IMG/VR virus record: IMGVR_UViG_3300025018_000001
Strand: one strand, 5' to 3'
Length of the DNA stretch: 64,000 bases
Source of the DNA: a virus
Taxonomy: Duplodnaviria; Caudoviricetes
In this document: positions 3,951 through 32,022 of the stretch, piece after piece
How positions within the stretch are numbered: the first letter of the stretch is position 1
How the letters are laid out: each line of letters starts with the position of its first letter
Notes under the pieces: model-generated
The model's database searches: none
Seen by the model: the letters and a program-made list of their open reading frames with translations, nothing else
Told to the model about the DNA's origin: nothing
Made by a program: the position numbers and the translations under genes

Positions 3951-4871
3951 TTATTTAGAATTTAAAAATGTTACCATGTCGAGAGCGTCTGAGTATAACA
4001 TAGTATCTAGTGATTCTGGTATGCTGCTTTCTCTTGTAGCATAAAATTCTTTGGCTGCTTCTTCAAAAGAAACATTCTTTGCAGAAAGCCTAGTATTAAT
4101 TGCTACTTTTTGTACCATAGTCAAAGCGTGTTCTGCACCTTTTTCTGAGCTAGGTGTATTAGGAGTACTGGGCATAGACCCTGGCACTGCTGTCATTTTA
4201 GGTAACACACTTGGTCCACTTGGTACACTTGGTACACTTGGTACACTTGGTACACTACCACTTGTGGGTGTTAACACTTTAGCTACTTCCTCTGCAACTG
4301 ATTCTATAGCTGTATTACTCATACCACCTGGAACATTTGGAGTACTTTGCTTGCCTGTTGGTGGTGTCGGTGGTGTAGATGAAAAAGATGGTGGAGTATC
4401 CACCGATGCCGTTGCCCCCATTGGGAAAGCGGTACCTGTTGTAGAATTAGGCATTGCTGTCTTTGGCATAGACGGAGTAAATGATGTACTCGTTGAACTA
4501 TCTGATTCATCATCATCCCCTTCCTCAAGAAATAAGCCTACGCCCCAGTTTCTGGCGGCACTTTTTATAGCCTTTGAAGTTGCTGATTTAAAAACATTAC
4601 CTAAGTCAACACCTCTAAATTTTTTAGCTGAGCCAAACCCATCTTGTTTTGCTAATACTCTACCTTCATCATCATATACTCTAAGTGATGCCAGTACTAA
4701 TACTTCGTCATCAATTACCTTATGTTCTAAAATTTCTAATCCCCAATTACAATTGAAAGCTTTGTTCAACCTATCAAGTACATATTTTGTTTTAACATAC
4801 TTAAACCCCTGTCCTGGTTTTTGGTCAACTTTCAAGTCTTCGTATAATTTATCTATAACATGTTGTTCCAT
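3951..4871 (-). CDS. Rad52/Rad22 (Sak-like) ssDNA annealing protein with Pro/Ser/Thr-rich linker
   Basis: Y V..RLN.AF...W, DGFGS, N.FKSA.S.AIK.AA..WGVG motifs. Confidence 0.85.
   Translation of the reverse strand: MEQHVIDKLYEDLKVDQKPGQGFKYVKTKYVLDRLNKAFNCNWGLEILEHKVIDDEVLVLASLRVYDDEGRVLAKQDGFGSAKKFRGVDLGNVFKSATSKAIKSAARNWGVGLFLEEGDDDESDSSTSTSFTPSMPKTAMPNSTTGTAFPMGATASVDTPPSFSSTPPTPPTGKQSTPNVPGGMSNTAIESVAEEVAKVLTPTSGSVPSVPSVPSVPSGPSVLPKMTAVPGSMPSTPNTPSSEKGAEHALTMVQKVAINTRLSAKNVSFEEAAKEFYATRESSIPESLDTMLYSDALDMVTFLNSK
4208..4256. repeat. 9-bp tandem repeat (CACTTGGTA) x5 plus partial copy, encoding (VPS)n in the Rad52-like linker
   Basis: Read directly from sequence. Confidence 0.95.
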
Positions 4872-4906: not shown

Positions 4907-4935
4907 ATTATAACTCACTAGTTTGTGTTTGTCAA
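4907..4935 (-). promoter_or_regulatory. Consensus sigma70 promoter for the Rad52/Clp operon
   Basis: TTGACA-N17-TATAAT. Confidence 0.85.
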
Positions 4936-4938
4936 CCA

Positions 4939-5097
4939 TTAATCAGTCTTTCTACTTGGATGTTTCTTTTTTCTACAATAAATAGTTTTATCTTTAACTA
5001 CTTTTGTTTGTGTATTATACTCTAAAAATTCTTTACGTGCAAGCTTTTTTATTAACTTTGTTCTTCTTTTTACTAAGTCATCCTTTTTGTTTGACAC
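4939..5097 (-). CDS. Small basic protein with ArfA-like motif (alternative ribosome-rescue factor-like), 52 aa
   Basis: Not in track. GTG start: VSNKKDDLVKRRTKLIKKLARKEFLEYNTQTKVVKDKTIYCRKKKHPSRKTD*; KVVKxKxxYxRKxKH resembles the ArfA core. Confidence 0.5.
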   Translation of the reverse strand: MSNKKDDLVKRRTKLIKKLARKEFLEYNTQTKVVKDKTIYCRKKKHPSRKTD

Positions 5098-5103
5098 GGC
5101 ATA

Positions 5104-5268
5104 CTACCCCCAAAATGTTCCAGGTATAAGCTCACAGTCAAAGTAATCCTTCAAGATATAAATATCTCTTTCAGAAAGGCCAGCATCTTTAATTTCATTC
5201 ACTAATAAGCTTATACGCTTTTTTATTATTTTTAATTTTTCAATTTCTTTTTTATCTTGTTTATCCAC
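5104..5268 (-). CDS. Hypothetical protein, 54 aa, ends in TAG in frame with the ArfA-like ORF
   Basis: Not in track. AGGAG RBS, GTG start, VDKQDKKEIEKLK...LIPGTFWG*. Confidence 0.6.
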   Translation of the reverse strand: MDKQDKKEIEKLKIIKKRISLLVNEIKDAGLSERDIYILKDYFDCELIPGTFWG

Positions 5269-5304
5269 ATATACTCCTATAATTGAAATTAAAAAACTAC
5301 ACTA

Positions 5305-5505
5305 CTAAAAGCTAGTGGTGTAGTTTTCCTCTGTAGAGTTCTGTATAAACTCGTCTGGGTCAATGAGCTTGTAGCTTATAACCTTATTACCATCTTCATC
5401 AAAAGCATCCACAAAAAGAAAAGCGGACTCGAATGCATCTTCCGACGAAAAATATATTGCTTCAGGTCCATCTTCGGACGATGCAACAAAGTAAACGGCC
5501 TCCAT
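5305..5505 (-). CDS. Acidic hypothetical protein
   Basis: ORF track, AGGAG RBS, TAG TAG double stop. Confidence 0.7.
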   Translation of the reverse strand: MEAVYFVASSEDGPEAIYFSSEDAFESAFLFVDAFDEDGNKVISYKLIDPDEFIQNSTEENYTTSF

Positions 5506-5570: not shown

Positions 5571-6290
5571 TTATTTTGCTGTAGCCATTACATTGTCTAC
5601 TACTTGTTCATACCCAGGCCAATTATCTACACCACTGCCTTCTAAAGCTATAAGAAAATTATTGTTTTTAATTAACATAGCATATTCTTCTTTTGATATA
5701 GTTACTGATTTTGATGCTAACCATTGCCTTAATCCAGCTAACATATAGGAAAAATCATCAAAAAATAAAACCCCGTACACATTTTCGTTATATGGATACC
5801 TTATAGACATTACAGGTAAACCTATACTAACAGCATATTGCTGACTTGAAGGGCTATCATCTATAAATAAATCAGCATCTTGCAACAAAGGGTGTTTATC
5901 ATCAACTGTATGAAGTTCATCAAAGAATATATTATGTTTATTAAGCCAAGCTTTAGTTGCTGCCTTAGATTTATATGTTCTATGAGAAGCTATTTTAACA
6001 TAGAAGCCAGAATTATGCAACATATTTGTCAGCTTACCCGCGCCTTCAAAACAACCAAACTCCTCTTGACGCATATGTACCGCGTCAATAGTCTGTTGAA
6101 AAATATGATCATCCATAAAACCCTCACCAAAATTCCAGCTATTCGTACTTCCTGGGAAGGGTATATCCGGGTTTATCTTTATAAGTTCTTCATACCAAGC
6201 AGGTGCCATAGACCATAGAATACCATCAATATCTACAACCGCTATTCTTTTATACATAGTGTCTCTTTGGAAAAAATCTTTTTTAACCAT
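5571..6290 (-). CDS. HAD-superfamily 5'(3')-deoxyribonucleotidase (NT5C-like)
   Basis: VVDIDG motif I, FIDDSP motif IV. Confidence 0.8.
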   Translation of the reverse strand: MVKKDFFQRDTMYKRIAVVDIDGILWSMAPAWYEELIKINPDIPFPGSTNSWNFGEGFMDDHIFQQTIDAVHMRQEEFGCFEGAGKLTNMLHNSGFYVKIASHRTYKSKAATKAWLNKHNIFFDELHTVDDKHPLLQDADLFIDDSPSSQQYAVSIGLPVMSIRYPYNENVYGVLFFDDFSYMLAGLRQWLASKSVTISKEEYAMLIKNNNFLIALEGSGVDNWPGYEQVVDNVMATAK

Positions 6291-7864: not shown

Positions 7865-7936
7865 TGCCTCCAGAGGGAATCGAACCCCCGTCACACTATT
7901 TTAGAGGTAGTTGTTCCACCATTGAACTATGAAGGC
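7865..7936 (-). tRNA. Amber suppressor tRNA, anticodon CUA
   Basis: GCCTTCA/TGGAGGC acceptor, GTTC/GAAC D-stem, ACTAC-CT CTA AA-ATAGT anticodon arm (C.A mismatch at 31-39), GGGGG-TTCGATT-CCCTC T-arm, A73. Confidence 0.88.
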
Positions 7937-31392: not shown

Positions 31393-31776
31393 TTACCAAG
31401 AAACACACATATCTCTTATTTCATCTGTACAACCCCAGTAGTCAATATCAATTTTTCCCATATCTACATCCCTAGAATCACACTCAACCTTAAACCCTTT
31501 AGCTCTTAGCTCTTTCTTTATAGCATCCATATAACTACTATTTAGTGTACATACATCTAAGTAAGAACCACCATATGTAATATGCCGTATCCCAGAAGAG
31601 GCTGCTTTTTTAATATCCTTATCTAGATTTTTTCTAATGTGTTCTGATAAACTAGTAGCTTGCATTTTCAATACATTCTGATGCTGTTCTTCTTTTTTCT
31701 TCTTTTCGGCCCAACGTTTTTTATTTATAGCCTCAGTGGTTTTGTTTGTTAATCTTTGAGCACTTTTTGCATCCAT
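31393..31776 (-). CDS. Hypothetical protein
   Basis: ORF track. Confidence 0.7.
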   Translation of the reverse strand: MDAKSAQRLTNKTTEAINKKRWAEKKKKEEQHQNVLKMQATSLSEHIRKNLDKDIKKAASSGIRHITYGGSYLDVCTLNSSYMDAIKKELRAKGFKVECDSRDVDMGKIDIDYWGCTDEIRDMCVSW

Positions 31777-31788
31777 ATAGTTACCTCG

Positions 31789-32022
31789 CTAGTTAAGATA
31801 AAAAAATTCACAACAAGGGTACTTTCTTCCCTTGTCGTCTAAAGGTTCTTCCCAATTAGATGGATCTGAGTTTTCATGATCACCGTCTTTAGGTTCCATA
31901 TTACAACTACATCCTCTCGGTACACAATCATCACAATAAAAGTCATTTGTTTCTGGACCTTCATGGCTTGGCATATATACCCAAACTGCTATTCTACCAC
32001 AATCACAATAGTCTGTCATCAT
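31789..32022 (-). CDS. Cys-rich hypothetical protein
   Basis: CDCG, CDDCVPRGCSC, PCCE. Confidence 0.7.
   Translation of the reverse strand: MMTDYCDCGRIAVWVYMPSHEGPETNDFYCDDCVPRGCSCNMEPKDGDHENSDPSNWEEPLDDKGRKYPCCEFFYLN

Follow-up and report, generated by a model that had tools for sequence, protein, structure and literature searches.

A small phage protein with an ArfA-like tail motif, predicted to belong to DUF7230, and the amber-terminated gene in front of it

Introduction

The described systems closest to the locus analysed here are short ribosome-rescue factors of bacteria. ArfA (YhdL, PF03889) is the RF2-dependent alternative ribosome-rescue factor of Proteobacteria, and its residues 15-31, an L-F-R-x-R-V-E strand, bind RF2. 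BrfA (YqkK of Bacillus subtilis) and ArfT (from Francisella) are short proteins whose positively charged C-terminal tails probe the empty mRNA channel. Hallmarks of all three factors are that peptidyl-tRNA on non-stop ribosomes is hydrolysed in an RF-dependent manner and that their loss is synthetically lethal with that of ssrA. We know of no obvious sequence similarity among ArfA, BrfA and ArfT and, since the rescue factors are mutually dissimilar, the existence of a further, unrelated-looking factor is plausible. Mature ArfA has 52-55 aa and the motif of ArfT is KKGGSTNKK (PMC6299226). A Lys-His pair that contacts U534 of the 16S rRNA is common to ArfA and BrfA (PMC6881298).

The locus studied here is a pair of small ORFs, ORF1 and ORF2, on the minus strand of a 64,000-nucleotide stretch of the IMG/VR virus record IMGVR_UViG_3300025018_000001 (the window, meaning the whole stretch that was analysed). 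The phage carrying them is a roughly 264-kb groundwater phage. A preliminary description of this DNA had proposed that ORF2 is an ArfA-like rescue factor, made either alone or, through an amber codon, as part of a 109-aa product that would be a candidate target of the suppressor tRNA of the phage.

Results

ORF1 (5104..5268, minus strand, as are all window features of the locus given below) encodes a small protein of 54 aa. It starts with GTG at 5268, 5 nt downstream of an AGGAG ribosome-binding site read from the sequence (5274..5278), which a sequence comparison also located in the related phage L002, and it ends with F-W-G followed by an amber stop, TAG (5104..5106). The frame runs on after the TAG through TAT GCC to the GTG at 5097 that starts ORF2 (4939..5097), a basic protein of 52 aa with a TAA stop at 4941-4939. 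The arrangement originally reported, a 54-aa ORF from GTG 5268 to TAG with the same frame continuing to TAA 4939, was thus confirmed as written, and the quoted string TKVVKDKTIYCRKKKH is present in ORF2. A GGGGG ribosome-binding site (5107..5111), formed by the last two codons of ORF1 (TGG GGG), lies 9 nt before GTG 5097.

The ORF1-ORF2 unit is delimited on its downstream side by a perfect sigma-70 consensus promoter (TTGACA, 17 nt, TATAAT; 4907..4935; 12/12 matches), which begins 4 nt past the ORF2 stop, drives a Rad52-like gene (4871..3951) and marks the end of the unit. The same promoter is found behind ORF2 in the relatives L001 (3939-3967), L003 (411-439) and L091 (913-941), with the leader conserved too. 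On the other side, a terminator-like hairpin with a U-run (5291..5329, in the region 5285-5335; 16-bp, AT-rich) is located just before ORF1, where it overlaps the end of an upstream 66-aa gene (5505..5305), tandem TAG TAG stops included. It has a folding energy of -16.3 kcal/mol (z -5.0), with 0 of 200 shuffled sequences folding as well, and its sequence is conserved in L001 and L002; a stricter terminator pattern did not call it. Located at the end of the 66-aa gene, this element may serve either as a terminator or for processing. A doubled amber stop in that gene is itself noteworthy, given that the phage has an amber suppressor.

The neighbours of ORF1-ORF2 in the window encode the Rad52-like annealing protein, a 239-aa protein (5571-6290) that combines an NT5C-type 5'-nucleotidase domain with a C-terminal T7 gp5.9-like RecBCD-inhibitor domain (Pfam E 2e-10), and a ClpB-like ATPase. 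A Pth2/suppressor tRNA operon lies 2-3 kb from the pair. The L001 homologue of the NT5C/gp5.9-like fusion (187 aa) does not have the gp5.9-like end.

Two ORFs that share a frame, separated by a single TAG and two further codons, in a phage that encodes a tRNA with anticodon CUA 2.8 kb from the junction (7865-7936, detected by ARAGORN), are compatible with programmed amber read-through, in which the functional product would be the 109-aa fusion and the gene a dedicated target of the tRNA(CUA) suppressor. We compared the junction across seven lineages, retrieved via the Rad52-like neighbour gene, phmmer, contig look-ups and scans of sequence collections; L001, a 228-kb IMG/VR phage, was reached through the neighbouring Rad52-like gene. 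The window junction reads TGG GGG TAG TAT GCC GTG, in frame. The frame is also kept in L002 and L091, which favours read-through, but it is kept there across other stops: L002 has a double ochre stop (TGG GGG TAA TAA GCC GTG) and L091 an opal stop (TGG AGG TGA TAT GTT GTG). In L003, TGG GGG TGA is followed by the TTG start of ORF2 in another frame. The remaining three lineages have no ORF1, and ORF2 is present there alone with its own start signals. In L001 and L152, it directly follows the conserved 66-aa gene, with an extended -10 element, a GGAGG site and a GTG start; in L147, it starts with ATG; and in L148, L149 and L151, it has its own TTGACT-17-TATAAT promoter and an ATG start.

TAG is therefore the junction stop in the window only, among these seven related lineages, which argues against the proposal that the junction is a target of the suppressor tRNA. 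An amber suppressor cannot decode TAA or TGA. As the junction stops of the relatives are unreadable by such a tRNA, the fusion product does not appear to be under selection. Neither fused homologues nor a sense codon in place of the TAG were found in the relatives. A phmmer search with the 109-aa read-through sequence among 1.84 billion representatives returned no fused form and three matches only, namely an ORF1 homologue, an ORF2 homologue and a low-complexity match. Two database proteins were considered as possible longer forms and rejected. The first, P0014 (109 aa), could have been a true fusion, but its DNA has a TGA at the junction, which the gene caller had read as Trp. The second, P0004 (79 aa), could have been a longer ORF2, but its translation depends on decoding TAG as Gln, and the actual gene begins at a TTG.

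TAG also serves as an ordinary stop in the window, where 13 of the 87 long ORFs terminate with it, among them genes of 647 and 923 aa. Among 14 TAG-terminated ORFs, two run in frame into the next gene. The other case is a 77-aa ORF (32022..31789, minus strand) followed by TAG, four codons and a 127-aa ORF (31776..31393; 131 open codons). By chance, one in three pairs of adjacent genes would be in the same frame, and the frame sharing of ORF1 and ORF2 does not exceed this expectation. The frame is kept by three of the four ORF1-bearing relatives, which counts against pure coincidence; however, these relatives share the junction by descent, so that keeping the frame amounts to one event. With the stop not conserved, ORF1 missing in three lineages, no fused homologue and in-frame TAG junctions at chance frequency in the window, we consider programmed read-through extremely improbable. 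The 109-aa product is thus unsupported as a read-through protein, the homologues of the two ORFs occurring independently of each other and also out of frame.

Each of the two ORFs shows purifying selection, with dN 0.12 and dS 0.33 for ORF1 against L002, and dN/dS of about 0.16-0.46 for ORF2 against four relatives. ORF1 homologues were detected in L002 (77% identity), L091 and L003. ORF1 is absent from the three other related lineages, in which it is dispensable. ORF1 has no Pfam or NCBIfam match and belongs to no known family, and it is unrelated to a small gene located upstream of another DUF7230 member.

Conservation at the junction concerns a purine-rich site formed by the last two codons of ORF1, GGGGG in the window, L002 and L003 and GGAGG in L091; the stand-alone ORF2 of L001 also has a GGAGG site. 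The preliminary description had regarded the GGGGG as a pseudo-ribosome-binding site, but GTG with this purine-rich site is a real start: GTG or TTG preceded by GGGGG or GGAGG is kept in five relatives, the two more distant ones having ATG. Whatever the stop codon, ORF2 starts about 4-7 nt after the ORF1 stop in the window (6 nt), L002, L091 and L003. Since the ribosome-binding site of ORF2 is located within the last codons of ORF1, the anatomy of the junction indicates that ORF1 and ORF2 are translationally coupled, yet separate, genes. A ribosome finishing ORF1 could restart on ORF2, and the shared frame and the TAG would be incidental. Should the tRNA(CUA) of the phage be active, some 109-aa fusion might arise as a by-product, which would not be maintained by selection.

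From profile comparisons, ORF2 is assigned as a divergent phage member of DUF7230 (PF23876). Searched alone, it falls below the Pfam cut-off of that family (27 bits), scoring 14.1 bits (E 0.051) over profile positions 18-35, and it matches the PHROGs phrog_2701, phrog_18092, phrog_20887 and phrog_6310 with E values of 0.0015-0.5. A family profile built from close relatives and extended once gives E 7e-20 for ORF2 and retrieves 397 proteins of 35-100 aa at E<=10. PF23876 is matched by 66 of the 71 aligned ORF2 relatives (best E 2.2e-8), and no other family recurs among them. Moreover, an hhalign comparison of bacterial DUF7230 members, namely those scoring 33-55 bits, with the phage family gave an alignment of 41 columns, in which ORF2 is the sequence shown, at a probability of 93.7% (E 1.9e-7). 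The DNA of the region had no match in 50,697 phage records, nor did ORF2 in a tblastn search of the same records, probably as a result of low-complexity masking. A word-indexed search with ORF2 alone retrieved only ORF2 itself, and the NCBIfam search yielded chance matches only. Taken jointly, the gene structure, the absence of programmed read-through and the DUF7230 assignment of ORF2 make up a reading that we consider probable.

DUF7230 comprises basic proteins of 35-70 residues, mostly from large phages. In ORF2, residues 4-25 (5023..5088) are predicted by AlphaFold2 to form an amphipathic N-terminal helix, which corresponds to the variable 'head' of the family. According to the family alignment and hhalign, residues 31-46 (4960..5007) form a conserved basic tail, T-K-V-V-K-D-K-T-I-Y-C-R-K-K-K-H, that contains the ArfA-like motif. 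The AlphaFold2 model, computed from a 71-sequence alignment, shows the helix at 4-25 followed by an extended tail (mean pLDDT 84), and Foldseek found no match to this model in the PDB. The tail is nearly invariant in the family, T-[KR]-V-V-K-D-K-T-x-Y-x-R-K-x-K-H, mostly with T-K-Y and with K after H; in ORF2 numbering, T31, K37, Y40, R42, K43 and K45 are invariant or nearly so. The heads differ greatly between members; besides the helix of the window clade, there are R-D-x-N-I, N-P-V-A-K and Cys/His-rich types. That the tail also occurs joined to the Cys/His-rich head shows it to be a portable module. The subfamily with that head (C-x-K-H ... C-x-x-C) includes P0012, P0030, P0031, P0079, P0099, P0100, P0108, P0116 and P0120, and the head is possibly zinc-binding. 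Among cultured phages, homologues are present in Campylobacter (Eucampyvirinae) and Vibrio myoviruses, where they are labelled "hypothetical protein" or left unannotated.

The spacing of the tail motif, K-x-K-x-x-Y-x-R-K-x-K-H, is identical in ORF2 (K35...H46) and Escherichia coli ArfA (K34...H45). The two proteins agree at K, K, Y, R, K, K and H, and the two glycines and the serine of ArfA are replaced in ORF2 (K-D-K-T-I-Y). When the tail of the ORF2 family is compared with that of ArfA, hhalign consistently aligns the two (P 0.002, probability 14%); it places N-T-Q-T-K-V-V opposite the ArfA segment L-F-R-Q-R-V-E with a 3-residue gap and no clear conservation. The Pfam ArfA model, which scores E. 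coli ArfA at 89.7 bits and has a cut-off of 25.5 bits, returned nothing at E<=10 for ORF2, for the read-through product or for the 71 relatives, and had no match in the six frames of the related 228-kb phage. A PDB-wide search with ORF2 and its 71-sequence profile returned chance matches (SUMO E1, Dcr1) and neither ArfA nor BrfA. Comparisons with ArfA, by Pfam, hhalign and the PDB-wide search, thus gave no significant match.

Below these thresholds, the ArfA model scores members of the family at 4-12 bits, with per-sequence P values of 1e-5 to 1e-3. When sequences were shuffled at matched composition, 0.5-5% of the trials attained the observed ArfA score (26/5000 for ORF2). ORF2 ranks first among 1024 window frames against the ArfA model, at 6.4 bits, a rank to be read against a roughly thousand-fold multiple testing within the window, as ORF2 had been picked for its ArfA likeness.

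These results bear on whether ORF2 and DUF7230 are true ArfA homologues, that is, RF2-recruiting rescue factors that phages acquired from bacteria. Motif spacing, motif position and protein length are all the same, and in P0115 and similar sequences the alignment with the ArfA model extends from the N-P-V-A-K helix to K-H-G (40 positions). In the reverse direction, the single best six-frame match of the Pfam DUF7230 model in an E. coli genome falls inside arfA, while the A4 family profile has arfA as its top match in one of five ArfA-bearing genomes and as its sole match in G062. The intragenic terminators of some bacterial members, described below, would also fit common descent. However, every score is sub-threshold, lysine-rich composition inflates such scores, and a profile of bona fide bacterial DUF7230 members, the core of the family in bacteria, has no likeness to ArfA (P 0.23). 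Furthermore, BrfA shows that an independent origin is possible, and shared function would not imply shared descent (PMC6881298). We therefore regard homology with ArfA as decidedly unlikely. Of the rescue factor originally proposed, the likeness in tail spacing is real, but kinship with ArfA is unproven, and membership of ORF2 in the ArfA family is not supported by these profile comparisons. The ArfA-like motif spacing appears instead, from the alignment, as the most conserved part of a large family.

We also searched the DUF7230 genes for the non-stop design that is typical of rescue factors. No significant structure (z -0.39) and no internal hairpin or terminator was found in the ORF2 mRNA, and none of the phage DUF7230 members examined contains an intragenic terminator. 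In two of nine bacterial DUF7230 genes sampled, an intrinsic terminator is located inside the ORF right after K-H-K-G. In L136, the terminator (1601-1634) begins at the K-H-K-G codons and comprises a T-run and an 8-bp stem, 5 pairs of which are GC; the stop is 83 nt downstream. In L141 (G1026:C89), a 9-bp stem with 7 GC pairs comes just after the DUF7230 match, and the frame stays open for 780 nt beyond it. Since both terminators precede the in-frame stop, the transcripts would end without a stop codon, like those of arfA and brfA. These cases support the view that part of DUF7230 is designed like a rescue factor, although this does not extend to the phage genes, which end normally. A long hairpin was also seen in the 3' extension of the gene on L132 (P0009), a bacterial-looking contig.

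The bacterial-type DUF7230 proteins L140, L143, L144, L132 (P0009) and P0074 end in ...Q-A-A, ...C-A-A or ...S-A-A. The ssrA degradation tag ends in Ala-Ala, and it is a speculation that the Ala-Ala ends could act as a built-in degron of the full-length form. A predicted complex of ORF2 (alignment A4) with E. coli RF2 scored 0.00, a value that counts neither for nor against binding, as ArfA binds RF2 only on the ribosome.

The neighbourhoods of eight family members were surveyed and are mostly related to DNA metabolism, not translation, with no consistent theme. In Campylobacter phage NCTC12673, the gp049 homologue (L131 3495-3626) is located between a clamp-loader subunit and RNase H, next to gp32. 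The homologue occupies the same place in CP30A, CPX and CP8, where it is unannotated in the GenBank records. RNase H-like genes adjoin, or are near, the homologues P0095 and P0037. On a 1.8-kb marine metagenome contig (L150 950-1310), a P0042-type DUF7230 gene is directly downstream of two tRNA-like genes.

Gene context does not favour a role in translation, and it keeps alive a rival in which ORF2, a small basic protein, binds nucleic acids as an accessory of phage DNA replication or recombination, or has some other early function unrelated to translation, the ArfA-like motif being a chance occurrence in a lysine-rich peptide. Its immediate neighbours, the Rad52-like annealing protein and the NT5C/gp5.9-like fusion, fit this reading, as do the replication genes around the NCTC12673 homologue, the RNase H-like genes at P0095 and P0037 and the weak statistics of the ArfA similarity. 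Yet the neighbourhoods are inconsistent across the family, one member follows two tRNA genes, and some bacterial members have the non-stop design. Moreover, phages of widely differing hosts keep Y, R, H, D and T at constant spacing, which non-specific DNA binding would not require. On balance, we judge a DNA-metabolism role mildly unlikely.

Discussion

ORF1 and ORF2 are best described as two small genes with a junction that suggests translational coupling, the second of them probably encoding a divergent DUF7230 member. The suppressor tRNA of the phage should therefore not be credited with an ArfA fusion target. More generally, in-frame TAG junctions of small phage genes require comparative support before recoding is inferred.

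Turning to what ORF2 might do, its tail hardly varies among phages whose hosts differ widely, which would be consistent with docking on a target that is conserved across bacteria. The K-H pair is among the features kept in the family. If ORF2 is a rescue factor, its role during infection would be to release or modulate ribosomes that have stalled on broken mRNAs. That ORF2 works like ArfA is, in our view, possible but less likely than not. A wider proposal would have DUF7230, including ORF2, consist of unrecognised and very widespread rescue peptides, release-factor-dependent or otherwise ArfA-like, that in large phages recycle host ribosomes stranded on degraded mRNAs and that in bacteria are placed under tmRNA control by intragenic terminators, in the manner of arfA and brfA; this we find rather doubtful. 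Were the rescue activity true, a function could be assigned to DUF7230, and these phages would come equipped with a ribosome-rescue factor of their own. That a tiny family common in large phages keeps a basic tail spaced like the mRNA-channel tail of ArfA is a lead of moderate value.

Compared with other coupled pairs of small genes, the ORF1-ORF2 junction shows nothing unusual, with the Shine-Dalgarno sequence of ORF2 inside the end of ORF1 and its start close to the ORF1 stop. Within DUF7230, ORF2 resembles the other members in its tiny size, its basic conserved C-terminal motif ending in K-H-K and the phage-rich distribution of the family. It differs from them in having a longer amphipathic helix as its head, instead of the N-P-V-A-K or R-D-x-N-I types, and in its GTG start, coupled here to an extra upstream gene.

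Among the rescue factors, ArfT has KKGGSTNKK where the ORF2 family has K-D-K-T-K-Y. BrfA has a Lys-His pair, as does the ORF2 family, but it was not returned by the PDB profile search, and its mRNA is cut short by an internal terminator, whereas ORF2 has none. The comparison with ArfA is the closest. Its tail, KGKGSYxRKxKH, is spaced as in ORF2 and placed at the same distance from the N terminus, its mature length is close to the 52 aa of ORF2, and the layout of a helix followed by an extended tail is common to both. In contrast, G35 and G37 of the ArfA KGKGS are D and T in ORF2, and the RF2-contacting L-F-R-x-R-V-E segment is not recognisable there. Finally, arfA has an RNase III hairpin and a non-stop mRNA, whereas ORF2 is a phage gene that ends with an ordinary stop.
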